In this document: piece after piece, positions 1-15,298 of the stretch | Position numbering within the stretch: position 1 is the stretch's first letter | Layout of the letters: every line of letters starts with the position of its first letter | NCBI GenBank assembly: GCA_018696595.1 | Contig: JABHQW010000007.1 | Location: forward strand, 1-58,268 | Reading direction: 5' to 3' | DNA length: 58,268 nucleotides | Source: Candidatus Woesearchaeota archaeon | Lineage (GTDB): Archaea; Nanobdellota; Nanobdellia; Woesearchaeales; GW2011-AR9 | Notes under the pieces: generated by a model | What the model was told of the DNA's origin: nothing | Seen by the model: only the letters and a program-made list of their open reading frames with translations | Databases searched by the model: none | Translations under genes and position numbers: made by a program

Positions 1-132
1 ATTCTAAAACACCCTTAAAGAGGAAAACCTAAACTAAAAAGAAAGACTATGGTTGTACTGGTTCCTGCGTCATAACTTCAACCTTCGCTATGCTCAGGTT
101 GCTCCCCAACATGAAGTGGGGGACAACTTAAC
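1..132 (+). repeat. Right arm of a truncated cassette (unit 0), same family as the right arm of cassette b
   Basis: Near-identical to 1966-2045 (ttctaaaac.cccttaaagaggaaaacc...ctggttcctgcgtcataacttcaa). Hairpin at 103-123, then caacttaac. Confidence 0.85.
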
Positions 133-136
133 ATAC

Positions 137-1183
137 ATTATGCTTAATTTTCAAGTTACCTAAAAGAGAACAATCCTGTCGGATAATCTCTAAACTAATG
201 CGTTGCTGTCTTTAACAATGTAAAAATCTATAACGGCAAAAACAAAAATAAACTGGAGCTCTCTGAACTATTTCAAATACTTTAAAAAGTCTAAAAAATT
301 ACTTAGAGTATAATGGTCATACCAATCATAAGTGATATAATCAGCAATATATGGTTCTTTCAAACAGAGAGTGTTGTACCATTATTTAAAGAAATATCAA
401 TCATTATCCTAATCCTATTTGTTGTTGATTTTATTTTAGCGGTAGTTCTTGATCAAGTTTTAATGAGATCAAAATATCATATTCCAATAGGATTAACGTT
501 GTGGCCAATATTTGTAGTAATTTTAACATACTTGTTTTATTCCTTTGGTGGACTTCTTGGTTTTAATTTTTACCAATTTGAGTTTAATAATCTTCTTGGT
601 TATGCAATAAAACATTGGTGGGTATTTGTAGTTTTTTGGATAATGACTTTATTTGGAAATATTCCTTATTCACTTGGCAAGTTAACCAAAAATGAAAAAG
701 TAATGAACTTTTTTGGAACATTCTTTACTCCCATACATGAAGAGTTCTTTTTTCGCTATTTAGGCATAAATACTATCTATGTACTTACCAATTCTATTGA
801 AATTGCAATAATATTTTCCTCTATTGGTTTTACATTGATCCATCTACCAAATAAATCCGGCGATAAATGGGGAGGGCCCGTAAAAATAAATGCAACATTG
901 TTTATGGGATTTGCATTAGGAATTATTGCTGTTAAGTATGGCTTCATTTTCGCAATAGCAATCCACATACTTAATAATTTACTAGCATTTTATGTTCTTC
1001 CTAAAATATTTAAAGATGAACAAATTTAACTAAAAAGAGAGCCCCAACTAAACACTAAAACTATTACTTGTTTTTGCCTAAACTAAATGTGTTAAAGACT
1101 TATGACAGCAACGCTCTATGAACGGTAACTTGAAAACTTCTCGGCTACGCCTCGACCCCGACGTAAAGTCGGGGAAGCATAAC
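137..1183 (+). mobile_element. Cassette a (CAAX protease cargo)
   Basis: Ends attatgctt / aagcataac (8/9 complementary). Nested inverted blocks ttttcaagttacc/ggtaacttgaaaa, gcgttgctgtc/gacagcaacgc, ggcaaaaacaa/ttgtttttgcc. Arms ~137-264 and ~1036-1183. Confidence 0.8.
313..1029 (+). CDS. CPBP/CAAX (Abi) family intramembrane metalloprotease
   Basis: Multi-TM protein with HEEFFFR (EExxxR), FTLIH and HILNN (HxxxN) motifs. Confidence 0.85.
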   Translation: MVIPIISDIISNIWFFQTESVVPLFKEISIIILILFVVDFILAVVLDQVLMRSKYHIPIGLTLWPIFVVILTYLFYSFGGLLGFNFYQFEFNNLLGYAIKHWWVFVVFWIMTLFGNIPYSLGKLTKNEKVMNFFGTFFTPIHEEFFFRYLGINTIYVLTNSIEIAIIFSSIGFTLIHLPNKSGDKWGGPVKINATLFMGFALGIIAVKYGFIFAIAIHILNNLLAFYVLPKIFKDEQI

Positions 1184-1296
1184 ATCGTTAAGTTGAATTA
1201 TTACTCGGAACCAGTAAGTTACAAACACTTAAAAAATAAAAAAGGTTTTCCTATCTATTAAAAATTAGGGCGTTTGAAAAAAAAGAAAAAAATAAT

Positions 1297-1905
1297 TTAC
1301 TCATAAAAATCATAACCAATCAGATGTTCTTTTATTTCCTTCTTACATCCAAATTCAGTATTGATGCCCGGATATTTAGCATTGTTACATTCATCATCTG
1401 GAAGTAATTGACAATAATGTTCATCATGATCACAACAACAGATTGGTAATTCAGACTCTTCATAAAAATCATAACCCATCAGATGGTCTTCTATTTCCTT
1501 CTTACATTCAAATTCAGTATTACTGTCTGGATATTTGGCATTATTACATTCATCATTCGGAAGTAATTGGCAATAATGTTCATCATGGTCACAACAACAA
1601 ATTGGTAATTCCGTTGGTACAATTGGTTTCAGAATTCTCTTTAGTTTCATTTTATACGCTGTCTTCAAAAACTTATCTTTTGGAATGTTTCTTGGAATTG
1701 TTAGTGTTTTTTTGTACGCTTGTCCTGCTAAAGCACTAGTATCCTCTGATTCTACTGTTTCAATTGCCTGATCTAATTCTTCAGCAGATAATTCACTTAA
1801 TTCTGCTTCCAATTCTTCATCAGAGATTTCTTCAGTAGGAGTACATCCAACCAAAAACATAAAAACAACTAATAAGCCCAACATAACTAAAAATATTTTT
1901 TTCAT
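1297..1905 (-). CDS. Secreted lipoprotein with two 53-aa Cys-rich repeats
   Basis: GAGGTG RBS before the ATG at 1905; signal peptide ending LVGC; duplicated ELPICCCDHDEHYCQLLP...GYDFYE. Confidence 0.75.
   Translation of the reverse strand: MKKIFLVMLGLLVVFMFLVGCTPTEEISDEELEAELSELSAEELDQAIETVESEDTSALAGQAYKKTLTIPRNIPKDKFLKTAYKMKLKRILKPIVPTELPICCCDHDEHYCQLLPNDECNNAKYPDSNTEFECKKEIEDHLMGYDFYEESELPICCCDHDEHYCQLLPDDECNNAKYPGINTEFGCKKEIKEHLIGYDFYE
1300..1611 (-). repeat. Intragenic tandem duplication, 159-bp period
   Basis: 1300-1452 and 1459-1611 encode near-identical peptide repeats. Confidence 0.9.
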
Positions 1906-2249
1906 AATAAACACCTCATTTTAAGTATAAATAAAGAACTATTTAATCCTTAATAAATATTACTATTCTAAAACGCCCTTAAAGAGGAAAACCCTAACTT
2001 TAAAAAAAGACTATGTTTGTAACTGGTTCCTGCGTCATAACTTCAAACTTGCCCATGGCAAGTTTGATCAGGACATAAAATCCTGACAACTTAACATCGT
2101 TATCTTCAATTCTCTTTGAGTTTAAGGGGCACTAATAACTATTCTAAAAAAATTATAATGGGGCAAAAACAATAAATATAAAAACAAAAATAGGGGCTCT
2201 CTTGTACTCTATTAATAACTAAACTCACAGACTAATACTACAAATAAGT

Positions 2250-2477
2250 TTATCTTTTCTTCTTACGTACAACTTCTTTGACTGGATGGCTAAGTAATGT
2301 TGGAAATAATATTCTTCGCAATCCTGCTAGTACTAATAAAACCGCAACCCAGGCAACCCAACCATCAATTCCAGACCATTTTGGCCAAACAAATGCGTTG
2401 AGTAAAAGTAACAATCCCCATGCAAGCCTCTTCACACCAAGATTACGAATACATTTAATATCTTTACACATGTCCAT
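2250..2477 (-). CDS. Small membrane protein, similar in layout to 38750..38950
   Basis: AGGTGA RBS before MDMCK; two TM segments with LLLLNA..W and a basic tail. Confidence 0.6.
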   Translation of the reverse strand: MDMCKDIKCIRNLGVKRLAWGLLLLLNAFVWPKWSGIDGWVAWVAVLLVLAGLRRILFPTLLSHPVKEVVRKKKR

Positions 2478-2499
2478 ATGTTTCACCTCTTTTTTTAAA

Positions 2500-2691
2500 C
2501 TACCAAACAAAAATTTCAGCTAGTGTTGATCCTGTATACATAAAGTATGCAACGACTCCAGCTAGTACTAATACTGCAACAATTAATATCACACCAATTC
2601 CCATCCTTAAATTGGGCGCCACAAGATGTAATAGTATCCTAAGAACAATTAGCCCACCTAAAACCAAAGCTAATATCATTAACGGTCCCAT
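2500..2691 (-). CDS. Small two-TM membrane protein
   Basis: Hydrophobic ORF, co-oriented with its neighbours. Confidence 0.55.
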   Translation of the reverse strand: MGPLMILALVLGGLIVLRILLHLVAPNLRMGIGVILIVAVLVLAGVVAYFMYTGSTLAEIFVW

Positions 2692-2746
2692 TTTTAAAAT
2701 GATATCTTATATATTTATAAGTTTTCCTAAAAGCTTTTTCTGTGAC

Positions 2747-3562
2747 TTACGCTGTTTGTAATAATTTATCGTAACCACCATACGTTTTGTTTAACCAATT
2801 GACAAGTAGACGAGCTAGAAGAGTTAAGATTACACCTGTCGCAGGTAGAGGAAGAACTTTTCCGGTTACTGCTGCAGCTCCTATAACAACCCTTTCTCTT
2901 AATTCCTTCTTTTCAATTAGTTTGGTAATTGCTTCCATTTGAGGTTCATTTTTCTGTAAAAACAAATCAAATCTCTTGATTATTTGTTCCTCGCTTAAAA
3001 TTAGATTGAACAATTTATTCAATTTCCTTCTGGAATTTGGAGTTTTATAACTTCTTATGAATTTATTAATAATTTTATCTTCAAGTTGTCTGGTTGCTAT
3101 CAACTTTACAAGCATCTTTCGGTTTGATCTGAAAAAATAATAGATTTTTATCATGGCCTTATGCACTTCATCTCTTGAATACAAAGCAGGCATTAAGAGT
3201 AGCGAAAAATATTTTGCTTTGGCACGAACTTTATCTTTAAATGCCATATATGTTTCTAGCCCATATAACTCTCTATCAATAACACTAATTATTACCCTTA
3301 GAATCATATTGGAAGCAAGTGAGTATTTTTCCAATTTTGTACTATGTTCAAGTAAATCATCCCAACTTTCAGATTTTTTTAAATCGAGGGCATATTCTAC
3401 TCTTTTAACATCGTTTCTTTCAAGAATATTAATAAGAAGTTTTAATGTCCTTTCGGTAAAAGTTCCTACCTCTAACTTAGCCCCAATAACATCCAAATCA
3501 TGTTCTGAAAGAGCTTCTGGAGAATATAATGTTCTAATGTCGCTATCTGAAACTTGGCTCAT
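2747..3562 (-). CDS. Hypothetical protein (helical, C-terminal hydrophobic segment)
   Basis: 271-aa ORF, no recognised motif. Confidence 0.7.
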   Translation of the reverse strand: MSQVSDSDIRTLYSPEALSEHDLDVIGAKLEVGTFTERTLKLLINILERNDVKRVEYALDLKKSESWDDLLEHSTKLEKYSLASNMILRVIISVIDRELYGLETYMAFKDKVRAKAKYFSLLLMPALYSRDEVHKAMIKIYYFFRSNRKMLVKLIATRQLEDKIINKFIRSYKTPNSRRKLNKLFNLILSEEQIIKRFDLFLQKNEPQMEAITKLIEKKELRERVVIGAAAVTGKVLPLPATGVILTLLARLLVNWLNKTYGGYDKLLQTA

Positions 3563-3783
3563 TATTCTGAATAATTATATTATAATTAATAAACATTTTG
3601 TAAACAAACAAGAGAGTCCCTTAATCTAACTTAAACTAAAAGTGTTTTTGCCCCCGGTCTAAATCTCATTTTAAAGGTATTAGTGCCCTGTATTCTAGAC
3701 TGCTATTGCAGTAATCTATACAAACTCAAAGAAAACTACTCGCTGCGCTCGTCCCCTACATAAAGTAGGAGGAAGATAACATC

Positions 3784-4775
3784 GTTATGTGCAATAAATT
3801 TTAGCGCGCTTTAAGAAGTGAACTTCTACTCGATTTCTTTTTTCTTTCACTGAGGTCTGCTCTTGTCATTTTTCTTTCTACTACTTCTTTTCTAGTTACT
3901 CCTGTTTTTTCTTTAAGTTCCTTAAAAGAAACAGAACCAAATTCACATCTGCTTATTGGAACGTCTTCTCCAATCCAAAATTCAGGAACTTTAAAATTGC
4001 CCTTGTACTTATCTATTCTTACTATTGATTTGTAATATTTTGTAAAAAGGAGATTGATGAAGAATTTTTTAAATTCAAGATAATTTTTTAATTTTGGTTT
4101 CTTTTTCATGAACATATCTTTTTCAAATGCTTCAGACAATTTAACCCAATCTTTTCCAAATTTCTTTTTCAAAATAGGCTTATGATATTTTTCATCCCAA
4201 TATTTTTGCTCTAAAACATAACAATGTTTTGCAATCTTATCTGTGATTTTAAACATAATATATTTATTACCTATTTTTGAAAAAATTGAAGCAATATAAT
4301 TAGGATCATTTGAACCTTTTAACCATCCATCTTGAAATTTCTTTGAAAAAGCCAAAATATAACCTTCATTATTAAAAAATTCCTCAAGTAATTTGTTTTT
4401 ATATTTAAATTCTATATCTCTATAACAACTTTCATAATTTTCTTCATCATCTTGTTCTTTTTTATACAGATCTATCAATTTTTTATTTTGGTGTTGATAT
4501 GCTTGTAATCTTCTAATTTCGGTTTTACTTAAAAAATCTTCAGGGCAATTTTCTAAAATCCAATCATAAGCATATGTTTTTGCAAAAGAAGTAGCCAAGA
4601 GCAGACCATCCTTCTTAATCTCTTTAATAAATCGAGTATAATGATAAAAAGTTTTAATTCTTCTCATAATCAAAAGAAGATTATTAGACTATAATAACTT
4701 TTCTATAAGCGCGCTAAAATTTACTTGCTCCGCATACATGCTACGCACCCCTACATAAAGTAGGGGGCACATAAC
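3784..4775 (+). mobile_element. Cassette d (ART-like cargo)
   Basis: Ends gttatgtgc / gcacataac (9/9). Inverted block taaattttagcgcgct / agcgcgctaaaattta; the cargo stop codon lies inside the left arm. Confidence 0.85.
3801..4673 (-). CDS. Hypothetical protein, possible ADP-ribosyltransferase-like fold
   Basis: N-terminal FYHYT...I..DGLL and C-terminal PEFWI...VP resemble the DarT/ART motif layout (pattern recognition only). Confidence 0.45.
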   Translation of the reverse strand: MIMRRIKTFYHYTRFIKEIKKDGLLLATSFAKTYAYDWILENCPEDFLSKTEIRRLQAYQHQNKKLIDLYKKEQDDEENYESCYRDIEFKYKNKLLEEFFNNEGYILAFSKKFQDGWLKGSNDPNYIASIFSKIGNKYIMFKITDKIAKHCYVLEQKYWDEKYHKPILKKKFGKDWVKLSEAFEKDMFMKKKPKLKNYLEFKKFFINLLFTKYYKSIVRIDKYKGNFKVPEFWIGEDVPISRCEFGSVSFKELKEKTGVTRKEVVERKMTRADLSERKKKSSRSSLLKAR

Positions 4776-4778
4776 ATC

Positions 4779-5587
4779 GTTAAGTTTAAGTTTCTTTTTT
4801 CCTGAATTTCGCTTTTATGTACTTTTTTACGTATAAGTCGATGATAAATCTCCATATCCATAATAAAATAAATAAATGAAGAATCTTGCGAAATCCTGAC
4901 CAGTGCTCCTACTCAAATTAGAACAGGGATAGCTCAATAAACCTGAAAACTTTAGAAACTTATTTAAATGATTTTTTATTACTTAACTGTATGAATGATT
5001 GTTTGTTTTGTAAGATTGTAAAAAAAGAAATCCCAATCACAAAAATATATGAAGATAAGAAAGTTCTTGCTATATTGGACATCCAACCAGTCAATGATGG
5101 TCACGTTTTAATAATTCCAAAGAAGCACGCAGTTCTTATTACAGAATTAGATGATAATTTAACTTCACACCTATTCAAAGTAGCAAAGAAAATAAACATT
5201 TCTTTAAGAAAATCAGGGCTTAAGTGTGAAGGTGTTAATTATTTTCTCGCTGATGGTGAGGCAGCAATGCAAGAAGTACCCCATGTACATTTACACGTAT
5301 TTCCAAGATATAAGAAAGATGGTTTTGGTTTGAAATTCGCGAAAAAATACTTTAAATTACCATCAAGAAAAAAACTTGACATCATAGCAAAAAAAATCAA
5401 AAATAATAAATAAATGAAGATTCTGAGCTATCCCTGAACTTGTTCTATTTGGAGCCCTGTTCATCGGAAAAAAGAAACCTCTGCGTAACCGGGTACTCAT
5501 TAGTTTCTTATATTATCGCCTTCGGCGAATTTCAACACTAATGAGCACTCCGTTACTTGCGGGAGGATGAACCTCCCGAAACTTAAC
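4779..5587 (+). mobile_element. Cassette e (HIT cargo)
   Basis: Ends gttaagttt / aaacttaac (9/9). Inverted blocks tttctttttcc/ggaaaaaagaaa and cagggatagctca/tgagctatccctg. Confidence 0.85.
4991..5413 (+). CDS. hit: HIT family nucleotide hydrolase (Hint-like)
   Basis: CLFCKI N-terminus, GHVLIIPK, HVHLHVFPR histidine triad. Confidence 0.95.
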   Translation: MNDCLFCKIVKKEIPITKIYEDKKVLAILDIQPVNDGHVLIIPKKHAVLITELDDNLTSHLFKVAKKINISLRKSGLKCEGVNYFLADGEAAMQEVPHVHLHVFPRYKKDGFGLKFAKKYFKLPSRKKLDIIAKKIKNNK

Positions 5588-5778
5588 ATCGTTAAGCTTA
5601 ATTTTCAAGTTACCTAGACGAGAACAATCCTGTCGAATACTCTCTAAACTAATGCGTTGCTGTCTTTAACAATATAAAACTCTATAACGGCAAAAACAAT
5701 AATTATGATAAAAATAAAATTGGGGACTCTCTTAAAAAATGTAGAAAAATATATTAACTTAGTAAAATTGACAAAACT

Positions 5779-5961
5779 ATGCGACTAAATGAAATTAAAA
5801 CATTAACAGGTTACATTATAGCTGTTGTTTATTTTCTAATAGTAATTTTTGTTATAATTCTAAACATTAGGTCTCCAATATTACACATTGTGATTGTTTC
5901 ATCAATTGTTATTGGGGTTGTTTTGTGGTTCTTCTACCTTTGGTTGGTTAAGTATTTTTGA
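5779..5961 (+). CDS. Small membrane protein
   Basis: Two hydrophobic helices; overlaps the convergent ORF by 60 bp. Confidence 0.4.
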   Translation: MRLNEIKTLTGYIIAVVYFLIVIFVIILNIRSPILHIVIVSSIVIGVVLWFFYLWLVKYF

Positions 5962-6201
5962 AATAAGAAAACCAATTCCTGCACCAATTCCAAATCCTAC
6001 AATTAACACAACTATAATCCACAAGATACCTGGAGGAAAGCCAAGAATTGATACAGTTCCAGCCATTCCTGATGTTTCACCAGCCACAAATTTCTGTAAC
6101 TCTAAATGTTTCATATATGAATAAATAAACAAAATCACTTCAAATATTAAAGCAACAACAATTCCAATAATTAACCAGAGTTTATTTTTCATTTTAATCA
6201 T
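5902..6201 (-). CDS. Small two-TM membrane protein
   Basis: Hydrophobic ORF with plausible composition. Confidence 0.6.
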   Translation of the reverse strand: MIKMKNKLWLIIGIVVALIFEVILFIYSYMKHLELQKFVAGETSGMAGTVSILGFPPGILWIIVVLIVGFGIGAGIGFLISKILNQPKVEEPQNNPNNN

Positions 6202-6603
6202 CTCTTTTTTATTATTTCTATGAAATTACTTTAATCTTTTTAAAATTAACTCTTCTCAATGAACGAAAGAGCCCCCCAAACACTAAAAAACTAATTGTTT
6301 TTGCCTTTAAACTAACTAAACTAAGAACTATGACAGCAACGCACTATGCACGGTAACTTGAAAACTTCTCGCTAACGCTCGACCTGGACGTAAAGTCCAG
6401 GAAGCTTAACATCGTTAAGTTCAATATTTTTACCGCCTTGTAGGTTCACACAATGTTCCCGAAAATCTTTTGCACTGGCACCTTTGCATAGACGAGAACA
6501 ACAAACGTGAGGAAATTAAAACTTCCTATAACATTGTCTATGCGATTTCATTTCATTACACCCAAATTCACTAATAGGCAGGGGGCGGAGAGTTATTATT
6601 AAA

Positions 6604-7146
6604 CTATCTAAGAGAACTAACACATTCAACAAATTCTGGAATAACTTTTATTCCAACTAACTTAACCCCACTTAACAAGTCAATAGCCGTATCAATATTC
6701 TTATTACACTGATTAATCCTAATTTCAAAATTATTCCTCATCTTCAAAAAATCATCATTTAGAATATCAAAATCATTTCTAGTTCTTTCTAATTTCTTCT
6801 CAATCCGCTCTTTAAAGACAATAATCTTTTTTACTTCCTTAACGAGTTCTTCCCATTTTTCATCAATTAAAGTATCAACAATCTCTTCTACTTTTTCGTA
6901 GATCATTTGCTCTGTTGATATATTGCCGACTTCAGTAAAATAATCTCCCTGCTCCTGAAAATTCTCATCAAAATCTTCCTCTTCATTTTGAAAAGTTTCA
7001 TCCGGTTGTCCAAAAGCCCAGTTAATTTCCTCTTCACTGTAACCTTTCGTAATCAATTCATCAAAAACATATTCGTCAGATAAACCATAATTTCTTAAAT
7101 TTTTTACTTCCAGAAGCAAATTATTGTAATAGTCCCTCTCCGACAT
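6604..7146 (-). CDS. Acidic coiled-coil hypothetical protein (DPANN-type)
   Basis: GGAGG RBS before MSERDYY; EEIVDTLIDEKWEELVKE segment recalls a conserved DPANN hypothetical family. Confidence 0.65.
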   Translation of the reverse strand: MSERDYYNNLLLEVKNLRNYGLSDEYVFDELITKGYSEEEINWAFGQPDETFQNEEEDFDENFQEQGDYFTEVGNISTEQMIYEKVEEIVDTLIDEKWEELVKEVKKIIVFKERIEKKLERTRNDFDILNDDFLKMRNNFEIRINQCNKNIDTAIDLLSGVKLVGIKVIPEFVECVSSLR

Positions 7147-7218
7147 CTGAAACCCTCCACCATCTGTCAAGATGTTCCCATTTTTCATCTTCATCAAACA
7201 ATCCAAAATTTTCTGAAA

Positions 7219-7383
7219 TCATTTTCTTATTTTCAACTCTTTTATTGCTTCTCTTAGCAGCTTACGGAGAGACTTTCTTTTGCTTTGCACAGGAGCAGGA
7301 CTTTTTTCTACTTCTCTTATTTCACCATAACTAAAATCTGGGTCTTTCTCTATTTTTGGGATATGCTCAAAATATTGGTTCAT
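7219..7383 (-). CDS. Small hypothetical protein, 54 aa (not in ORF track)
   Basis: MNQYFEHIPKIEKDP...LREAIKELKIRK; overlaps the end of the upstream ORF. Confidence 0.4.
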   Translation of the reverse strand: MNQYFEHIPKIEKDPDFSYGEIREVEKSPAPVQSKRKSLRKLLREAIKELKIRK

Positions 7384-7525
7384 TTTCCAATACCTCTTGA
7401 TCTTCAGGAATTCCTTTCAGTAATCTTTCCCAATTCTCTTCACGCAGATCATTCCACTCTTCATCGTAATCATAGTCTTCCCTTGATGCCCGCCACTTTA
7501 ATTTTTGCTTACGAGATCGAGCCAT
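7367..7525 (-). CDS. Small protein with basic N-terminus and acidic C-terminus
   Basis: GGGGTGA RBS before MARSRKQKLK. Confidence 0.55.
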   Translation of the reverse strand: MARSRKQKLKWRASREDYDYDEEWNDLREENWERLLKGIPEDQEVLENEPIF

Positions 7526-7606
7526 GATAATCACCCCTTTAAGCCTAACAGTAAAAGAAGTATAAAATTCTGTGGTAGAAATCACCAACTTTTTTGGGAA
7601 AAATAG

Positions 7607-7903
7607 TTAACCATAAAGTGCAATCCCCCCTAAAATAAAGATATAACAAATCAACCAAAGAACATAAGTGATGATAATTGGCTTTTTCTTATGTATGCTT
7701 CCGTAGGCTATCCAAACAAGTGCAATTAATATGTAGGAAAGCCAAGCAATCGCTGATACTCCACTCGCATTTTTTCCAATCCAAATTTTAGTTATTTGAG
7801 GAATCGTCATCGCCAATCCAAAAAAACCGGAAGAATAAATCAAAGTGTCAATTAGTTTTTCTTTTTTCGCTAGAAAAGTATATCTTGTTTGGTTTTCTTT
7901 CAT
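7607..7903 (-). CDS. SemiSWEET / PQ-loop family transporter
   Basis: TIPQITKIWIGKNASGVS motif, three TM helices. Confidence 0.85.
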   Translation of the reverse strand: MKENQTRYTFLAKKEKLIDTLIYSSGFFGLAMTIPQITKIWIGKNASGVSAIAWLSYILIALVWIAYGSIHKKKPIIITYVLWLICYIFILGGIALYG

Positions 7904-7975
7904 TTTCCATGCTAACCATAAATTATATGTTGAAAAGAAAAAAGATATTTGGGAATAAAAAATTGTCTTAAAGAC

Positions 7976-8071
7976 TTATTTTTTCTTCCCTTTCTTTGCT
8001 CCTTTTTTGGATTTCTTACCAGAAGCTTCTGCTCCAGCTGCAATCTTTGCTTTCCTTGATTTAGTTGCCAT
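7976..8071 (-). CDS. Lys-rich micro-protein, 31 aa
   Basis: MATKSRKAKIAAGAEASGKKSKKGAKKGKKK; GGAGGT RBS. Confidence 0.55.
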   Translation of the reverse strand: MATKSRKAKIAAGAEASGKKSKKGAKKGKKK

Positions 8072-8090
8072 TATATTTTACCTCCATTAT

Positions 8091-8258
8091 TCAGTCATAA
8101 TCATACTTGTAAGCCCAATCGTCATCATCTGGGTTGGTCTTCTTTCTGTTAGAACCTTCAAGGTTTCCCTCTTCGTAATCTTCTAACTCTGCAGAATCTT
8201 CTCCAAACCATCCAATGAAACTAAAGTTCTCATCTTTAAATTCTTCAGTATCTTTCAT
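8091..8258 (-). CDS. Acidic micro-protein, 55 aa
   Basis: MKDTEEFKDENF...DDDDWAYKYDYD; GGTGAGGGG RBS. Confidence 0.55.
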   Translation of the reverse strand: MKDTEEFKDENFSFIGWFGEDSAELEDYEEGNLEGSNRKKTNPDDDDWAYKYDYD

Positions 8259-8325
8259 TTTCCCCTCACCATCTAATTGAAAAAAAGAAAAAAAATTTAA
8301 AACAGAGATTTCCTCTCAAAGAGAG

Positions 8326-8358
8326 TCACTTTTTCTTTTTTCCTTTCTTTTTAGCCAT
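8326..8358 (-). CDS. Lys-rich peptide, 10 aa
   Basis: MAKKKGKKKK; GAGGTG RBS. Confidence 0.4.
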   Translation of the reverse strand: MAKKKGKKKK

Positions 8359-8386
8359 TGTGGAATCCACCTCATCAAGATTTTTT

Positions 8387-8464
8387 TTACTTCTTTTTTT
8401 TCTTCTTTCCTTTTTTTTTACCTTCTTTAGACTCAGCTGCAGCTTTCTTTTTCTTTTTGGCCAT
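8387..8464 (-). CDS. Lys-rich micro-protein, 25 aa
   Basis: MAKKKKKAAAESKEGKKKGKKKKKK; GAGGTGA RBS. Confidence 0.55.
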   Translation of the reverse strand: MAKKKKKAAAESKEGKKKGKKKKKK

Positions 8465-8481
8465 TTATTTCACCTCATTTT

Positions 8482-8592
8482 TTAATAATCCTTGTCCCAA
8501 CGATCATCATCATCAGGATCAGGTTCTTCTTTGTCCTCATCTTCAAAATCTTCGTCATTACCTTCATTTTTCTTCTTCTTTCTTGGCGGCAT
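8482..8592 (-). CDS. Basic/acidic micro-protein, 36 aa
   Basis: MPPRKKKKNEGNDEDFEDEDKEEPDPDDDDRWDKDY; GGAGGT RBS. Confidence 0.55.
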   Translation of the reverse strand: MPPRKKKKNEGNDEDFEDEDKEEPDPDDDDRWDKDY

Positions 8593-8605
8593 TTTTTGTA
8601 CCTCC

Positions 8606-8737
8606 TTACAGTATTGCTCCGCAATAAGGGCAAACTAAAGAAAGCCCTTCCATTTTTGTTTCATCTACAAACACTTTACACTTCGGACAATAACAACCCT
8701 GATGGCTTTTTTTTGAAGAGGTGTTTTGGCTTGTCAT
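8606..8737 (-). CDS. Zinc-ribbon micro-protein, 43 aa
   Basis: CPKC...CPYC; missed by the ORF track. Confidence 0.65.
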   Translation of the reverse strand: MTSQNTSSKKSHQGCYCPKCKVFVDETKMEGLSLVCPYCGAIL

Positions 8738-8820
8738 TGTTGTTCAGAAAGAAAGAAAAGTACCTATATAATCTTGCGGTAGGTGAAATAAACCAAAAAA
8801 AGAAAATAAGTTTAAACTAA

Positions 8821-9378
8821 TTATTTCTTTTTCAGGAAGAACTCGTTAAGCGGGAATTCTTTCTTGTCAAGAATTTCATAAAGCAGACCTATCGGTGATT
8901 CTGTGATTATCTTCTCAGTGGAAAATGGATAAATATGTAAGATTTCAACTTCTCTGGAAAACTTCGTCTGCATTTTAGCAACGTATCTATCCATTTGATC
9001 TAAATCCTTAAAGCCCATAATCAATATATGGCTCGCTTTAGGCTCTGTGACACGATAAGCATTAATCACGTAGGGGATTTGCTTAATCCTCTGTGAAATC
9101 TGTTCATCACTATGAGAATCCCAGACTTCTGAAGTTAGCTTAATGATGAGCATCGCCATTACTTTAATCCCTAATTTCCTTAAATCAAGAATAGGCTGAT
9201 AGCCTTTAATTATACCTTTATCTTCTAACTTATGACGAATCTTAAAAACAGCTTGAGGAGAAAGACCCATCTTTTTAGCTATTTCTGTATCGGGCAATTT
9301 AGCAGACTGGATAATCGTCTTTAAAACTTCCTGATCATTTCTTGTTAAGTGGGGGTTCTCTGGGTCTGGCTGCTTCAT
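8821..9378 (-). CDS. Lrp/AsnC family transcriptional regulator
   Basis: HTH TEIAKKMGLSPQAVFKIRHKLEDKGIIKGY followed by a RAM-type domain. Confidence 0.9.
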   Translation of the reverse strand: MKQPDPENPHLTRNDQEVLKTIIQSAKLPDTEIAKKMGLSPQAVFKIRHKLEDKGIIKGYQPILDLRKLGIKVMAMLIIKLTSEVWDSHSDEQISQRIKQIPYVINAYRVTEPKASHILIMGFKDLDQMDRYVAKMQTKFSREVEILHIYPFSTEKIITESPIGLLYEILDKKEFPLNEFFLKKK

Positions 9379-9698
9379 AGTAAGCTAAAATAACTAACAA
9401 CTTTAAAAGCATTTCTAAGAAATTTAAATAACTCTCCGCCCCATGGTTTTACTCTGCTTTGCAGTAATTGATATGCCTATTAGTGAACTACGGTGCCAGT
9501 GCGATTTTCGGCGGTAAAAATACTCTGCGATTTAATGTTCTCCGTGAGGAATTAATAAAAAAATTCTAGTCTCACTCCGAACTTAAATCTTGGTCTCCCC
9601 ACTCCGCAAACATATCACTGTAAAAGTAGATGTTTAAATCGAAAGAACCCGCTTCTGTAAGTCGCTATAATTCCCTAAATGTTTGCTCGTAAGTCGAC

Positions 9699-9810
9699 GA
9701 ACTTAACAGGAATTATGCGGTTGCGTTACTCAGGCTCCCCTCTAAAGGGGTCGCCCTGCGTTACTCACCCAAATGGCTTCGCCACTTCGCATAATTCCAC
9801 CGTTATACGT
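9699..9810 (+). repeat. Junction J7 with a 94-nt attC-like palindromic insert
   Basis: gaacttaac-aggaattatgcg...cgcataattccacc-gttatacgt; near-identical to 12271-12373. Confidence 0.8.
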
Positions 9811-10122
9811 AATTTTTTATTTGCCTTGCCTTTGGCAACTTTCTTAGCTCTTTTCCTTTCCCATGCAAAGCTCAAGTAAAAACCGAAAAGAAAGCTTCGG
9901 GCTACGTCGGGAATGTTTAACGTTGGTACTTTCGTTTAGTCGGATAAAACAAAAAGAATTCAATTGAAACTGAATATAACATTGACTAAACGGCTTCGCT
10001 TCGCTACGACCCAAATTTTTTTAATGAATCTAAATCAAGTAATAATTACAAAATACTATTAATTTCAGATGAATTTATAAACTAATCCTGAAATTTTTAC
10101 GCTTAAATTGACAAATAAAGAA

Positions 10123-11172
10123 ATGGAATCATTGAACTTTTTGATAACTAATGCAAAAGCACAAACTTTTCCAGGAACAGTCTACAGCTTAAAGCAAGAA
10201 TTTAAAGGAAAAATAATTTCTGTATCTTATAAAGAAAACGCAATAGGTGCATTCCTTTCTGATAAAAATTTTATAATCTCAAAAAACGATTCTTCTCAAT
10301 ACATCAGAGAAATTTTGTCCATTTGTAAAGAAGAAAAAATCGATGTAATCATCCCACTTAGTATTGAAGAAAGAATTATTTTTCTTAAAAATAAACAACT
10401 GTTTGATGAAAATGAAATTAAGATATTCTCTTCAAGTATTGAATCAATTGAGAATGCAGAAAATAAAGTTTTTCTTTATGAACTTTGTAAGAAAAATAAT
10501 ATTCTAACTCCTTATTTTTATGTTGTTAATAATTATACTGACTTAAAAGAAAAAGCGTTATTATTAGGTTATCCACAGAAAAAAGTAATCATCAAACCAA
10601 TTAATTCTTGCGGTTCGAGAGGTTTAAGAATATTAAATAAAAAAGCTGATTACAAAAAAAACTTTTATAATATTAGAGCAGATTACACTGAAATTACTTT
10701 AAGTGATCTTAGAAATATTATTGGAAGTAAATTTAGAGATTTAATGCTTTGTGAATATATCTCGGGTGAAGAATATACCGTCGACTGTTTGCGTTTAACT
10801 GAACATCATTTTTCTTTTCCTAGAATAAGAAAAGAAGTAAAAAATGGATTAACATATGTTGGCCAGATGAGTAAGCATGAAGAAATAATTCAATCAAGTC
10901 AAAAATTAGCAAATATTTTGGATTTAACAACCGTATTTGGTTTCCAGTTTAGATTGAATGAGATGAATAAGCCTGTAATCATTGATTGCAACCCTCGAAT
11001 TCAAGGAACAATGATTATGAGCACTTTAGCAGAAGCAAATGTAATAGCTGCTGGGATTAAGATTTTGTTAAATAAAACTAAAGTAGAATTTAATCCTGAT
11101 TGGAACATGACATATTATAGATTCTGGGGTGGTGTTTCTGTTGGTAAAACGAAAAAAATAGTTAATTTTTAA
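10123..11172 (+). CDS. ATP-grasp domain protein (carbamoyl-phosphate-synthase-like)
   Basis: IIKPINSCGSRG, CEYISGEEYTVD, IIDCNPRIQG. Confidence 0.85.
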   Translation: MESLNFLITNAKAQTFPGTVYSLKQEFKGKIISVSYKENAIGAFLSDKNFIISKNDSSQYIREILSICKEEKIDVIIPLSIEERIIFLKNKQLFDENEIKIFSSSIESIENAENKVFLYELCKKNNILTPYFYVVNNYTDLKEKALLLGYPQKKVIIKPINSCGSRGLRILNKKADYKKNFYNIRADYTEITLSDLRNIIGSKFRDLMLCEYISGEEYTVDCLRLTEHHFSFPRIRKEVKNGLTYVGQMSKHEEIIQSSQKLANILDLTTVFGFQFRLNEMNKPVIIDCNPRIQGTMIMSTLAEANVIAAGIKILLNKTKVEFNPDWNMTYYRFWGGVSVGKTKKIVNF

Positions 11173-12106
11173 CTATTCCCAGATGGATGATTCTTGATCC
11201 AGCATAATTAACTGGATTAGTGTTTTTTCCGATAATAATTCCATTTTCAGGAGAATGATATTCTTTTATAACTTTTCCAAAGATATCACTTACAATTGCA
11301 ATTTTTTCTCCCTTTTTTACATTAGATCTCAACCCTGGTAAAACATTTAAAATTCCACCTCCTTTAGTGTTAATTCTTTGCGAACTAGTGCAAATAGTTG
11401 GATTAGTATTAATTGAAGTTTTTCCATCAATAATATTTAGATAAATTAAGCAGTTAACTATTCCTTTAACCGCATTAGAAATCACTTCATTTTGAAATTT
11501 GTTTGGGTCCCCCAATTCTAGAGTAATCGCTATTATTCCATTTTCATTTGCCTGTCTTCTCAGGGTTCCTTTTCCACCTATTGAATTAAGGATAATATCT
11601 GAATTTAGTAGTAATGACAAATCGTAAATAACTTTATTTTTCAAATTAGCTCTAACATAAAAAGAATTCACATTTCCAATTCTCGCTGTATGTAGATCAA
11701 GAATATAATCAAAATTTTTTATAACTTTATTAAAAATATTGAACGCATAAATACTACTCTCTGTGCCATTTTCCTTTCCAGGAAATTTATAATTCAAATC
11801 TCTTCCGTCAATAAAATTTCTTTCTTTTCTTAAAAAACCAGGCACATTAATTACTGGCACTCCTACAATAATTCCTTTTAATTTATTTAAATCAATTTCA
11901 TTAAACACTTTATGGATTACCAAAAGACCATTTAATTCATCTCCATGAACTAGTGCTGTTAATCCAAATGTTGGTCCCTTTTCTTTTCCTTTTAATACCA
12001 TAACTGGAACACTAATATCATGACCCAAACTATTTGAAACTATCTTTAACCAGCAACTTGTTAATCCTACTGGAAAATTATTAAAATCCAATTCTTTTAT
12101 CTCCAT
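11162..12106 (-). CDS. Succinylglutamate desuccinylase/aspartoacylase family (M14) protein
   Basis: HGDELNG, DLNYKFPG, LDLHT, TLELG. Confidence 0.9.
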   Translation of the reverse strand: MEIKELDFNNFPVGLTSCWLKIVSNSLGHDISVPVMVLKGKEKGPTFGLTALVHGDELNGLLVIHKVFNEIDLNKLKGIIVGVPVINVPGFLRKERNFIDGRDLNYKFPGKENGTESSIYAFNIFNKVIKNFDYILDLHTARIGNVNSFYVRANLKNKVIYDLSLLLNSDIILNSIGGKGTLRRQANENGIIAITLELGDPNKFQNEVISNAVKGIVNCLIYLNIIDGKTSINTNPTICTSSQRINTKGGGILNVLPGLRSNVKKGEKIAIVSDIFGKVIKEYHSPENGIIIGKNTNPVNYAGSRIIHLGIVKN

Positions 12107-12270
12107 GAAGAGAGGTTTTATCCATAACTATAAAAATTTAATTGAATAAACCACATATATAATTGGTTTTACTCTGCTACGCAGTTATTGATAACGATTC
12201 ATTAAAAAAACTACAGTACCAACTACATTCCCGACAAATAAAAAACTCCGCAGACCATCAAAGGTCTGCT

Positions 12271-12373
12271 ACGTATAACAGGAATTATGCGGTTGCGTTA
12301 CTCGGGGCATCAAAGCCCCTGCGTTACTCACCCAAATGGCTTCGCCACTTCGCATAATTCCAACGTTATGCTC
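12271..12373 (+). repeat. Junction J8 with an 85-nt attC-like palindromic insert
   Basis: acgtataac-aggaattatgcg...cgcataattccaac-gttatgctc. Confidence 0.8.
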
Positions 12374-12950
12374 AATTAATCTTTTCCTCTTTTCCAAAAA
12401 CATCTTTATTGCCAACTTTTGCTTTCTCAACTGTTATCTTAATCCTCTTAATTCTAGTTTCTTCACGTTTCCCACGTAAGATCCATCTATAAAAAACCTT
12501 TTTTAGAGAAGCAGAGTACTTTTCAAAATTATCTTTAGCTTTCTTATTTTTATCTAAAGCTTTCTTTAATTCAACAGGTATATCTGGATTTTTTGGAATT
12601 CCAAAATCATGTGTGGGCTTCATCAGACCTTCTTTGTAAAATTTCAAGCCTGAAGGAGTCATTTTTCCACGTTCAATCAACTGTTTACCATACCCGAGAG
12701 TGTTATCACTCCATTTACTATTTTTATTCCTTCTAGAAAATGTTCTGATATACCTTTCTTCATCTAATTTTTTAAGTGTAGTATCAATCCAACCAAAACA
12801 AATCGCTTCTTCCATTAATTCTCTGTGAGAAGGAGATGACTTACCTGTATGTTTCTTGTAAACTATAACTAAAACTTTATCTTCTTTATCATGATTCGTC
12901 ACTAACCACTTTCTAAAATCTATTCTATTGAATGCAGTTATTGTCTTCAT
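12372..12950 (-). CDS. YdeI/OmpD-associated family protein
   Basis: FRKWL, EEAICFGWID, F..R...S.WS..N and IPVELKKAL motifs; GGTGA RBS. Confidence 0.9.
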   Translation of the reverse strand: MKTITAFNRIDFRKWLVTNHDKEDKVLVIVYKKHTGKSSPSHRELMEEAICFGWIDTTLKKLDEERYIRTFSRRNKNSKWSDNTLGYGKQLIERGKMTPSGLKFYKEGLMKPTHDFGIPKNPDIPVELKKALDKNKKAKDNFEKYSASLKKVFYRWILRGKREETRIKRIKITVEKAKVGNKDVFGKEEKIN

Positions 12951-13072
12951 AGTATCACCATTAATCTTTGATATCATTTAAACTTTATGGGTTTTTCTGT
13001 TTCAATATTTTATATTGGTTCAATACTCCACTTTTTGAAATCCCCTTATCCTTCAGACATATAGACCCCCCA

Positions 13073-13093
13073 GCACATAACATCATTAAGTTC
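13073..13093 (+). repeat. Degenerate junction J9
   Basis: gcacataac-atc-attaagttc(aat). Confidence 0.65.
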
Positions 13094-13139
13094 AATTTAA
13101 ACACACATCTTTATAACTGAGAAGCATATTTTGCAGTAT

Positions 13140-14390
13140 ATGGATACATCATTTAAAGATCTTAATCTGAACCCGCAATTAGAAAGAGCATTAACTAAAT
13201 TAGGATATAAAGTACCAACCCCGATTCAGTTGAAAGCAATCCCGGGTTTATTAGAAGGTAAGGACCTAATAGGTATTGCACAAACAGGCACTGGTAAAAC
13301 TGCAGCATTTGTATTACCAATACTGCACCGGATGGTTGAAAAATATCCTAGAAAAATTAGAACTTTAGTAGTTGCACCAACACGAGAACTAGCAGCACAG
13401 ATTGGAGAAAGTTTTACCCAATATGGAGAGTTCTTGAAGTTTAAACACACAGTTATCTTTGGTGGTGTTAAACAAGGAAAACAAGTTCAAGCATTAACTA
13501 AAGGAGTAGACATTCTTGTAGCAACACCAGGAAGATTATTAGATTTAATAGATCAAAGAAAATTAACTCTTAAAAATGTAGATTTTTTTGTCCTTGATGA
13601 AGCAGACAGAATGTTAGACATGGGATTCATTAATGATATTAAAAAAATAATTTCCAGATTACCTCATAAAAGACAATCACTATTCTTCTCAGCAACAATG
13701 TCTCCACAAATCAACAAACTTGCAAAGAGTTTACTTAATAACCCAATTCATGTTGAAGTTACGCCTCAAGCAACTACGGTAGAATTGATCAAACAAGAAG
13801 TCTTTTTTGTTGACCAAAAAGCTAAAGAACAGTTATTGCTTAAACTTTTGAAACATGAACACCTTACAAGTATTCTAATTTTTACTAGAACAAAACATCG
13901 AGCAAACAAAGTTGCTGTTTTCCTTAATAAGAATAATATTTCTGCCGATGCAATTCATGGCAACAAATCACAAAATGCAAGAACAAAAGCAATTAAAGAT
14001 TTTAAAACAGGTAAGATTAAAGTTTTAGTTGCAACTGATATTGCTGCACGAGGGATAGACATTCCAGAAATTTCTCATGTGATAAATTTTGAACTTCCTA
14101 ACGAACCAGAAAGTTATGTTCACCGGATTGGTAGAACTGCCAGAGCTGGAGCTAAAGGAACAGCATTTTCATTTTGTGCTGCTGAAGAAAGAAGTTATCT
14201 TCACAGTATTGAAAGATTGATCAAACAAAACATTGAAGTTATGGATCACACTTTTCATTCAGAGACTGCAAAAAACGCAGTAGGTGCAGCAGCCAAACCA
14301 GCACCAAAACAAAGAGGATCATTTAGATCAAAAAGCAAAAAATCATTTTCTAAAAAGTTTAAGCCCAAACACCGTTTTAAAAGAAGATAG
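13140..14390 (+). CDS. rhlE: DEAD-box RNA helicase (RhlE-like)
   Basis: AQTGTGKT, PTRELA, DEAD, SAT, HRIGRTAR. Confidence 0.92.
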   Translation: MDTSFKDLNLNPQLERALTKLGYKVPTPIQLKAIPGLLEGKDLIGIAQTGTGKTAAFVLPILHRMVEKYPRKIRTLVVAPTRELAAQIGESFTQYGEFLKFKHTVIFGGVKQGKQVQALTKGVDILVATPGRLLDLIDQRKLTLKNVDFFVLDEADRMLDMGFINDIKKIISRLPHKRQSLFFSATMSPQINKLAKSLLNNPIHVEVTPQATTVELIKQEVFFVDQKAKEQLLLKLLKHEHLTSILIFTRTKHRANKVAVFLNKNNISADAIHGNKSQNARTKAIKDFKTGKIKVLVATDIAARGIDIPEISHVINFELPNEPESYVHRIGRTARAGAKGTAFSFCAAEERSYLHSIERLIKQNIEVMDHTFHSETAKNAVGAAAKPAPKQRGSFRSKSKKSFSKKFKPKHRFKRR

Positions 14391-14468
14391 TAATAGAATT
14401 AACTAAGGAGATAAACTGATTTATATTTTCTTTTTAAGATTATCTAGTGTGGGGGAGGGTCAGAATTA

Positions 14469-14492
14469 GCCCATAACGTTGTTAAGCTCAAT
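14469..14492 (+). repeat. Degenerate junction J10
   Basis: gcccataac-gtt-gttaagctcaat; right half fits the junction consensus. Confidence 0.5.
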
Positions 14493-14521
14493 CGTGAAAA
14501 AAAATAAAAAATAAAAAAAAA

Positions 14522-15298
14522 TTATTTTCTACAGGCAACAATGGTTTCTCTTACACATTCACTCATTAAATCATAAGCCCCATTTTCTATGAGAGAATCA
14601 TGCAATTTACCAGTAAAACTTCCAGGTCCAGCAACTTGACCATATATTTCATCACCGGATGTTCCCATGAGTAAACGTTTTCCAATTGCCATTAAAGTTG
14701 CCCCATACATAGCTCTTGCATCTTCTTCATTCAATCCATCTAAAGAATCTATTTTGCGTTCTATTCCTTTAGCCATCAAACCAGTATCACAAGCAATCCA
14801 AGTACGATCAGCCAAAGCTTTTTCATCAACTTCTTTAGCTGAACCTCCAAAGATGTACTTTACTATTGCCTCATCTTCTTCGGTGGTTTTAGAACCAAGC
14901 GCATATGCTGCTATTTCATCAGATACAAAAATGCCAGTCATCACTCTGCAAACTCTTGATTGGTCAAGAATTGATTCTATATTTGCAATACTCTTTCCTG
15001 CGGCAAGAGAAATTACCAGTTTATCTTTAGCAGAGTATTTTATCTCTTCACAGACATCATCAAGAGAATTTGGTTTTAAACCCAGAATTACTACATCAGA
15101 ATTTTTAACAGCATAAACATTGTTATTGCTAACTTCAATGCCATATTGTTGTTGTAACTTTTCCAATCTTTCTAAGTTTCTTCTTGCTGCAATTATTCTT
15201 TGATGTCCTTTTTTCTTCAAGGCATCAATCACTTTGGTTCCTAAGTATCCCGCACCAACTACAGAAATAGTCTTATCGCTGACAAGGAATACAATCAT
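14522..15298 (-). CDS. Pyrroline-5-carboxylate reductase-like oxidoreductase
   Basis: VVGAGYLG Rossmann motif, SDVVILGLKP, ISLAAG, VAGPGSFT; divergent C-terminus. Confidence 0.7.
   Translation of the reverse strand: MIVFLVSDKTISVVGAGYLGTKVIDALKKKGHQRIIAARRNLERLEKLQQQYGIEVSNNNVYAVKNSDVVILGLKPNSLDDVCEEIKYSAKDKLVISLAAGKSIANIESILDQSRVCRVMTGIFVSDEIAAYALGSKTTEEDEAIVKYIFGGSAKEVDEKALADRTWIACDTGLMAKGIERKIDSLDGLNEEDARAMYGATLMAIGKRLLMGTSGDEIYGQVAGPGSFTGKLHDSLIENGAYDLMSECVRETIVACRK

Follow-up and report, generated by a model that had tools for sequence, protein, structure and literature searches.

A covarying hairpin with a conserved loop, in fixed register with the junctions of woesearchaeal cassette arrays

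Most cassettes of the arrays analysed here end in a short hairpin whose stem covaries while its loop and its register with the recombination junction stay fixed. Structure-specific recognition of such an element had been proposed from the letters of one window, a 58,268-nucleotide stretch of a Candidatus Woesearchaeota archaeon genome. Our analysis confirms the observation as real, and the evidence from beyond the window is far stronger than that of the window by itself. On comparative sequence grounds, the chances appear to us evenly balanced that an integron-like (attC-like) recombination site includes the hairpin in its cassette-side half, as an integral component under structural constraint.

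The window holds six hairpins with a 7-bp stem and an RTRAA loop, together with two variants. Checking of coordinates and single-stranded DNA folding recovered every one where the sequence-only reading had placed it, though those at 2068–2086 and 3753–3771 are imperfect.

104–122, + strand: variant hairpin, 7-bp stem with one mismatch, ATGAA loop; right end of the cassette running off the window start
1156–1174, + strand: hairpin, perfect 7-bp stem, GTAAA loop
2068–2086, + strand: hairpin, 6 bp plus C.A at the loop-closing position, ATAAA loop
3753–3771, + strand: hairpin, one internal mismatch, ATAAA loop
4748–4766, + strand: hairpin, perfect stem, ATAAA loop
5560–5578, + strand: hairpin, perfect stem, ATGAA loop
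6383–6401, + strand: hairpin, perfect stem, GTAAA loop
12250–12269, + strand: variant hairpin, 7 bp, 6-nt loop, one base 5' of the tip of an attC-type junction

The four perfect hairpins (1156–1174, 4748–4766, 5560–5578 and 6383–6401) fold as single-stranded DNA at -7.6 to -8.8 kcal/mol (z -3.7 to -5.8). The hairpin at 3753–3771 reaches -5.9 kcal/mol (z -4.3) and that at 2068–2086 reaches -4.9 kcal/mol (z -2.3), the C.A mismatch at its loop-closing pair leaving effectively 6 bp and a 7-nt loop. The variant at 104–122 is covered by a match of covariance model R1 at 78–149. The whole 1.19-Mb genome contains nine GC-rich 7-bp hairpins with an RTRAA-type loop. Seven lie in the array of the window, each on the + strand and each leading into tip and core, one lies at the end of contig C8, 5' of a variant core, and one lies elsewhere. 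The class is exclusive to junctions, with eight of the nine genomic copies preceding a core. No Rfam family matched any junction in positions 1–15000, searched at E up to 1; two chance-level matches were both off-junction.

Neighbouring cassettes are joined by an invariant 11-nt core, TAACATCGTTA, and the sites to which the hairpins are tied are as follows.

124–148, + strand: junction with variant centre (5 nt replacing ATCG); 9-nt tip, centre, 11-nt right arm
1175–1198, + strand: junction; 9-nt right tip of cassette 1, invariant core 1180–1190, right arm ending AAT
2087–2110, + strand: junction; tip, core 2092–2102, right arm
3772–3795, + strand: junction; tip, core 3777–3787, right arm
4767–4790, + strand: junction; tip, core 4772–4782, right arm
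5579–5602, + strand: junction; tip, core 5584–5594, right arm
6402–6425, + strand: junction; tip, core 6407–6417, right arm
9699–9813, + strand: attC-type junction; tip, 94-nt insert with inverted ends at the core centre, right arm; upstream hairpin weak
12271–12376, + strand: attC-type junction with 85-nt insert, inverted ends
13073–13096, + strand: last junction of the array, core with one mismatch, without hairpin

The same array is also carried by assembly GCA_018656325.1.

Each cassette is shown to be a discrete mobile unit. Its left end consists of a 9-nt tip followed by AAT, and its right end of a variable block, the 7-bp RTRAA-loop hairpin and a 9-nt tip that can pair with the left tip of the same cassette. 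The left and right tips of one cassette match at all five variable positions (5/5) in 54 of 99 cassettes, compared with 4% in shuffles, and tips facing each other across one junction match at chance level only. Delimited by this complementarity, the tip begins at the base right after the hairpin, so the gap is 0 nt. The fixed spacing originally described stands; with that reading's own delimitation of the tip the gap is 1 nt. The hairpin is one-sided: cassettes have it on the right end but not on the left, and the first site of the platform, beside xerA, has none. In the site itself, the right arm (11 nt, ending AAT) is conserved, whereas conservation of the left arm is confined to the inner 5 nt, its outer part being the hairpin stem. 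At most junctions ATC alone separates the two inverted tips, and with just 3 nt between them these junctions lack an L box. The hairpin had been thought to give the site its polarity; the core has an asymmetric centre, ATC, in any case, so polarity does not need the hairpin.

The hairpin moves together with its cassette: cassette 1 (138–1191) recurs with 100% identity in another contig with different neighbours, the breaks falling at G|TTA and inside the core. Breakpoints of this kind show exchange that, as judged from sequence, takes place inside the core, at or next to G|TT. Compared with its copy in a 98%-identical cassette elsewhere, hairpin 5560–5578 differs by two compensatory double substitutions, which points to selection for pairing. 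Long inverted ends are a feature of the cassettes. When circularised cassette ends are folded as DNA, the hairpin comes to lie next to the tip helix within a multibranch junction. Gene orientation is unbiased among 63 cassettes (36 minus, 27 plus), which speaks against a terminator and supports a hairpin that goes with the recombination junction whichever way the genes face.

Evidence beyond the window comes from 204 unique junctions from metagenomes and sister genomes. The hairpin is present in the same register at 159 of them, with 70 distinct stems, which bears out its placement at the right tip of most cassettes. Outside the window, 159 of 173 good hairpins (92%) keep the register to the base, and 96.2% of stem cells are paired compared with 57.3% in shuffles. 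A compensatory-change test on 106 diverse copies found double changes at all seven stem pairs, in 25–67 sequences each, and a covariation score of 0.98 against 0.26 in shuffles, a value reached by 0 of 500 shuffles; pairing collapses once the stem partners are slid out of register. Ranked by mutual information, the top seven column pairs coincide with the seven pairs of the stem, and the flanking hairpin is the sole structure found by RNAalifold on the junctions. Compensatory change of the stems, as claimed from the window, thus holds in a larger alignment. Loop conservation in the metagenome set is partly circular, as that scan fixed loop and core; in arrays found independently via xerA, 14 of 17 sites show the loop in that register, in keeping with the proposed retention of loop and spacing. 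Loop-adjacent positions are restricted in sequence, and an unpaired purine lies 5' of the stem in 92% of copies. An extension of the stem across this bulged purine was considered and rejected, just one extra pair (-26 with -5) being enriched (formed in 59% compared with 30% expected). An RNA GNRA-like pentaloop was ruled out, as two-thirds of loops begin with A. Non-Watson-Crick stem pairs comprise 17 G.T and 23 A.C with no strand bias, so that nothing favours RNA or a particular DNA strand.

Of the 40 genera sampled from the family, 25 give a match to the covariance model, and matches elsewhere in the order are almost absent, extending the element well beyond this genome. A scan of a genome collection for core plus right arm gave nearly all chance matches in bacteria and one Woesearchaeota contig, with no main hairpin at its site. 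The hairpin is not indispensable, because at about 15–20% of junctions (roughly one in five or six) it is missing or replaced by another end type.

Directly 5' of the main hairpin lies a further element.

6359–6382, + strand: semi-conserved block or weak second hairpin directly 5' of the main hairpin
1132–1155, 2044–2067, 3729–3752, 4724–4747: block equivalents; long version at 5497–5559

A looser second hairpin had been described at this position. A recurrent, semi-conserved sequence block is indeed present; the hairpin is borne out only in part, the 30 nt 5' of the main hairpin folding slightly beyond shuffles (mean -1.9 compared with -1.07 kcal/mol; 25% of segments at -3 kcal/mol or lower compared with 8%), and the block of the commonest subfamily has essentially no stable stem. 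An upstream TAAC-like motif was considered as a second half-site pairing with the core and rejected, since it is unconserved in most copies and does not covary with the core.

In relatives, a XerA-type tyrosine recombinase is the enzyme consistently associated with the arrays. Its gene lies divergently upstream of the array in at least ten loci, comprising eight metagenome loci, in which recombinase genes were sought by tblastn, and genomes G409 and G406. In G404 (twice) and G401 the match coordinates are, as coordinates, compatible with the same divergent layout. The linked recombinases are 271–275 aa long and score above the cut-off of the XerA_Arch model. They match integron-integrase models in two stretches, below cut-off and skipping the insert, and in this profile comparison the IntI-specific domain is not present. 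In the present genome no recombinase gene was found in the window or within 10 kb leftward in the same strain's long contig.

These features suggest a mechanism in which a XerA-family tyrosine recombinase, encoded divergently at the array head in relatives, would perform the exchange. On single-stranded DNA or an extruded palindrome the hairpin would fold and stack directly on the tip helix, and such stacking would explain why the hairpin–tip distance is fixed to the base. It may also extend and mark the weak cassette-side arm of an otherwise near-symmetric core. The recombinase or a helper protein could then read the loop and the S:S closing pair sequence-specifically, either separating the cassette site from the platform site or setting the reacting arm or strand, in parallel with the role of extrahelical bases and terminal structure in attC. 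A single folded junction cannot by itself serve as a full tyrosine-recombinase substrate, being one duplex arm closed by a 3-nt loop, and a role in folded DNA is mechanistically incomplete for that reason.

Other explanations of the hairpin deserve weighing. A GC-rich stem in a genome of 32% GC might be a bidirectional transcription insulator, or a hairpin stabilising RNA 3' ends, at each cassette boundary, linked to the site by the shared boundary only. Cassettes with genes in both orientations need insulation, and in the alignment A-runs often lie 5' of the upstream block and T-runs 3' of the right arm. The Watson-Crick stems, without a G.T-over-A.C excess, fit DNA read on both strands and equally an element acting in both transcription directions. 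We nevertheless think an insulator unlikely: a terminator requires neither the base-exact register with the tip in 92% of copies nor the conserved asymmetric loop, the T-runs lie 20–30 nt from the stem instead of adjoining it, and minus-strand genes have the hairpin upstream of their start, not past their stop. In archaeal termination T-tracts suffice and hairpins are not needed. It is also improbable that the hairpin is a passenger palindrome without a role of its own, left over from a longer attC-type terminal structure, paired via hairpin-templated repair (template switching) and spread by end-module swaps. Across 25 genera and 70 stem variants the loop has kept its sequence and its length, and the closing pair and the exact register are conserved as well; this implies that purifying selection acts on more than pairing, and the paired double changes within the 98%-identical cassette likewise speak against it. 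Such a history would nonetheless agree with the swapping of end modules between cassettes independently of cargo, with three copies (L257, L166 and L168) that resemble template-switching products or joins inside the loop, with the different hairpins found at the equivalent place in attC-type junctions of the same arrays, and with the 15–20% of junctions that manage without the hairpin.

The sequence-only reading had likened the element to the subterminal hairpins of HUH transposases. A one-sided, subterminal hairpin with a conserved loop could be a signal for a single-strand HUH enzyme (IS200/IS605-like or Rep-like) nicking near or inside the loop; two natural chimeras seem to join different end families there, and the -26/-5 pair faintly recalls guide pairing. 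The analogy does not hold up as a mechanism, and we regard such a signal as very improbable. A Y1 HUH transposase (PF01797), the one HUH family covered by the search, was not found in this genome (G000, completeness 97%) or in G409 (completeness 98%), which has more than 13 sites, the cassette boundaries lie within a palindromic core with tips matched in integron fashion, and the gene consistently linked to the arrays encodes a tyrosine recombinase.

In a more far-reaching, and doubtful, form of the recombination-site reading, structured recombination sites would come in a third kind, next to integron attC and the attP fold of CTX phage, and the hairpin would be the recognition element that defines it. 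The reader would be a plain XerA-type recombinase, either unaided or assisted by a helper protein; from the helix of hairpin stacked on tip, in DNA that is folded or extruded, it would distinguish cassette ends from the platform site and select the reacting strand. If true, the arrays would amount to a Xer-based equivalent of the integron in DPANN archaea, or to its forerunner. Integron integrases are considered descendants of Xer-like recombinases, and how recognition of sites by their structure emerged is a standing question in the field. Within the literature searched, no description of the hairpin or of XerA-linked arrays was found. As an element very well defined by its covariation, at a fixed crossover distance and in arrays whose linked XerA looks ordinary, it offers a compact (~45 nt), synthesisable substrate for testing whether Xer proteins read DNA structure. 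The covariance model is a practical marker, finding arrays in metagenome-assembled genomes missed by attC finders and integrase profiles, and, with accessory genes of tiny symbiotic archaea as their cargo, the arrays bear on gene exchange among such organisms.

Parallels with known systems are partial in each case. IS200/IS605 and REP/RAYT elements share a short, imperfect, one-sided hairpin, close to the end of the element and recognised by its structure. Terminal inverted repeats are lacking in IS200/IS605 elements; here the ends are inverted repeats meeting in a palindromic core, with no HUH (Y1, PF01797) gene linked. Acinetobacter pdif modules are plasmid-borne and XerC/XerD-dependent, with flanking sites in inverted orientation, and we know of no flanking hairpin reported for them. 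Like the cassettes, they are small gene modules bounded by Xer-type sites in varying contexts (e.g. PMC11705084). As with Xer/dif and IMEX, a Xer-family recombinase is associated with the arrays. The commonest form of the right arm is one position off the XerD arm of E. coli dif, a 28-mer confirmed in the literature, and with arms aligned the centre is 5 nt here compared with 6 in dif. Many IMEX sites share the degenerate left arm seen here, although IMEX are one or few phage-like elements and not arrays of many cassettes. A precedent for folded DNA is CTX phage, whose folded single-stranded attP(+) is reportedly a Xer substrate; there the fold itself forms both arms, whereas here the hairpin flanks an arm.

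The closest comparison is with integrons, in which attC sites follow the layout R''-L''-variable terminal structure-L'-R' with extrahelical bases, as in archaeal integrons and CALINs (Ghaly et al. 2022, PMC9668308). Unlike integrons, the linked recombinase is XerA-type without the IntI-specific domain, and the cassettes have long inverted ends with genes either way (36 minus, 27 plus) instead of mostly co-oriented. Unlike attC, most junctions lack an R/L-box fold within one site, having just 3 nt between tips, the hairpin lies outside the R''/R' pair and not between its members, and the loop is conserved in sequence. In common with integrons, there are cassette arrays with crossover at or next to G|TT, and each cassette ends in a sequence complementary to that at its start (54 of 99 at 5/5 positions). 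As for attC, the cassette site is asymmetric and distinct from the platform site, recognition would be by structure and not by stem sequence, and two junctions of the window (9699–9813 and 12271–12376), with about ten elsewhere, adopt the canonical attC-like layout.

An array of short gene cassettes occupies the left end of the window, which covers the first 58 kb of contig C2 in an archaeal genome of 1.19 Mb and 32% GC. Its junctions are centred on an invariant 11-nt core and are listed here together with related sites on two other contigs of the same genome, C8 and C3.

Window 1 to ~13,100: array of short gene cassettes
Window 133-137: variant junction centre
Window 1180, 2092, 3777, 4772, 5584 and 6407 (start positions), all plus strand: exact 11-nt core, TAACATCGTTA
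Window 9699-9813 and 12271-12376: attC-like junctions, each with an 85-94-nt insert exactly mid-core with 11-12-nt inverted ends
Window 13078: core with one mismatch, the last junction of the array, without hairpin
Window 16707-18977: CDC48 gene, archaeal-type
C8 89525-89594, 130 nt from the contig end: perfect hairpin with ATAAA loop at a cassette end, followed by a variant core
C3 ~265030-265135 (L261:1395-1485), minus strand: dif-like site ~70 nt upstream of the xerA start, with an apparent decayed cassette end beyond it

Preceding every exact core stands one of the hairpins listed by the sequence-only reading (6/6), each with a 7-bp stem and a 5-nt RTRAA loop. Stems are perfect in four, mismatched at the loop-closing pair in one and mismatched internally in one; their folding energies as single-stranded DNA lie between -4.9 and -8.8 kcal/mol (z-scores -2.3 to -5.8). 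A whole-genome scan for GC-rich 7-bp stems around this loop returned nine matches, seven of them in the window array, one at the C8 end and one elsewhere, compared with one to three for each control loop; Rfam has nothing at the hairpin sites. The hairpin-bearing cassette end close to the end of C8 probably represents an array continuation that was not assembled, which indicates that the array is split over assembly gaps. A 235-kb contig of the same strain carries ~2.1 kb more of the array beyond the left edge of the window, and the 10 kb on that side contain no recombinase gene. At the other end of the window (58150-58268), which is the end of contig C2, an 18-nt tandem repeat is common to the start of contig C4; it is coding, Ala/Gly/Glu-rich in one frame, and is the likely cause of the assembly break. 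Within the array, cassette 2 contains a 152-nt tandem repeat (1301-1611; 90% identical, period 159) that lies inside a 205-aa minus-strand ORF and encodes a Cys/His-rich repeat.

The hairpin stem is conserved as a structure rather than as a sequence. A search pattern with loop, core and the terminal AAT of the right arm fixed, and all stem positions free, matches sister genomes and at least 119 metagenome contigs; the matches listed, together with arrays found independently via xerA, provide 204 unique junctions. At the fixed offset all seven pairs form in 136 of these and six of seven in 23, using 70 different stems, while the unpaired junctions are mostly chance matches outside arrays or a second end type. 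Register and 5-nt loop are the same in 159 of 173 good hairpins. The top seven column pairs by mutual information in the ungapped alignment are the seven stem pairs, and for an alignment of 106 sequences RNAalifold predicts the hairpin helix as the sole helix, each stem pair having changed on both sides in 25-67 sequences. Pairing stands at 96.2% versus 57.3% in shuffles and the covariation score at 0.98 versus 0.26, a value reached by none of 500 shuffles, and both collapse when the partners are slid. The proposal that stems change in a compensatory manner while loop and spacing are kept is thereby upheld.

The loop reads ATAAA, GTAAA, ATGAA or GTGAA in 166 of 171 copies, and because the scan itself fixed the loop, the independent figure is taken to be 14 of 17 sites in the arrays of two other genomes, G409 and G406. 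C:G or G:C closes the loop, the adjacent pair has its purine on the 5' side, and an unpaired purine lies 5' of the stem in 92% of copies. Non-Watson-Crick stem pairs (17 G.T, 23 A.C) display no strand bias. A second right-end type, at L175, L193, L233, L174 and L171, keeps the usual register for its loop-like pentamer and GC-rich 3' half but lacks the complementary 5' half. In a few chimeric hairpins (L166 ~3700-3765, plus; L168 ~1890-1960, plus; L257 ~1756-1823, minus) the 5' and 3' halves come from different end families and are joined within the 5-nt loop, and in one of them part of the 3' stem has been overwritten with sequence copied from the 5' stem. Such chimeras could arise from template switching at the folded hairpin or from loop breakage.

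The 9-nt tip that follows the hairpin is reverse-complementary to the opening 9 nt of its own cassette. Among 99 cassettes, 54 have own tips that agree at all five variable positions, versus 4% when shuffled, and agreement between the two tips joined at a junction is at chance level only. Complementarity of a cassette's own ends follows the integron rule and locates the exchange within the invariant core, as natural recombinants confirm. Cassette 1 (138-1191) recurs with 100% identity in another contig, there directly after an xerA-type gene, and the flanks of the two copies diverge starting exactly at G|TTA on the left side and immediately beyond the core on the right. A 614-kb contig contains a 98%-identical copy of the HIT cassette (4772-5485) in which the upstream block is replaced and the main hairpin shows two double substitutions, each compensatory, and one loop change. 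These comparisons indicate that the hairpin moves with the cassette right end and stays paired while diverging. The platform-side site, the first beside xerA, is without hairpin, and attC-type junctions have other hairpins with other loops in the same place. The inserts at 9699-9813 and 12271-12376 give the otherwise minimal site a canonical attC-like fold, and the same insert families are seen again in other contigs. At L253/L281 (~7460-7600) two junctions lie just 119 nt apart, an interval that is an 'empty' cassette of end modules only.

DNA folds of circularised cassette ends predict that the inverted ends pair into a long stem leading to a multibranch junction, where a weak hairpin, the RTRAA hairpin and a tip-ATC-tip hairpin lie side by side with zero bases between the main hairpin and the tip helix. 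In the model proposed here the hairpin would stack on the tip helix; the core is dif-like with a degenerate arm on the cassette side, which the stacked hairpin would lengthen and mark. On the opposite side lies a well conserved 11-nt arm that terminates in AAT and closely resembles the XerD arm of E. coli dif. By analogy with attC, the stacked hairpin may take the role of extrahelical bases and terminal structure. One folded junction supplies only one arm, and the stacking model is therefore incomplete.

The hairpin might alternatively act on transcription. Cassette genes occur in both orientations (36 minus, 27 plus), which rejects a co-directional terminator; a bidirectional insulator is possible but leaves both the exact register and the asymmetric conserved loop unexplained. 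As a mechanism, the likeness to hairpins read by HUH transposases, drawn from sequence alone, is not supported: neither the host genome nor G409 has a Y1 HUH transposase gene. A second, looser hairpin had also been proposed 5' of the main one. It is weak: the 30 nt upstream of the main hairpin fold only slightly better than shuffles, the commonest subfamily is without a stable stem, and a semi-conserved block is the better description of this region.

A 271-275-aa recombinase gene lies divergent to and upstream of the array at eight metagenome loci and in G409 and G406, and by match coordinates only the same xerA/array layout fits two arrays in genome G404 and also G401. The array-linked recombinases score above the NCBIfam XerA cut-off; integron-integrase models match them in two pieces and below cut-off, and these proteins are therefore without the integron-specific domain. 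On contigs C1 and C24 of G404 there are two xerA-type paralogues, each with matches to R1, our covariance model of the hairpin element, in divergent layout (coordinates only), so the array-linked enzyme need not be the chromosome-resolution XerA. In the host genome the sole full-length XerA gene is on C3 with no array alongside, and an apparent decayed cassette end (4-bp stem, ATAAA loop) lies ~60 nt beyond its dif-like site. A window segment of ~80 nt (14415-14492) is ~85% identical to the region just upstream of this gene and contains a TATA-like stretch and a dif-like site (14474-14492); the gene whose end lies just in front of this segment encodes a DEAD-box helicase (13131-14390), and no recombinase gene adjoins it. 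In some arrays (L280, region 7610-9331; also L173, L185 and L229) a gene for a 296-aa DNA-binding protein of ORF6N/KilA-N type separates the xerA-type gene from the first cassette and is on the xerA strand; other arrays are without it, and its product is a candidate helper. Between the xerA-type gene and the first site, in the 40-150 nt upstream of that gene, L223, L156, L146, L207 and L273 share a conserved non-coding block that contains inverted GTCCAGTG-like words and could be a promoter, an operator or a small RNA.

R1 detects the element in 25 of the 40 further genera that were sampled within the family, at up to 19 copies per genome; a sample of the order yields it in only two of ~119 other families, as single matches. 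Archaeal integrons and integrase-less attC clusters have already been published (PMC9668308). In contrast to the XerA-linked, hairpin-marked arrays with genes on both strands described here, those published systems use integrases of the IntI type and have canonical attC folds, and most of their genes point the same way.
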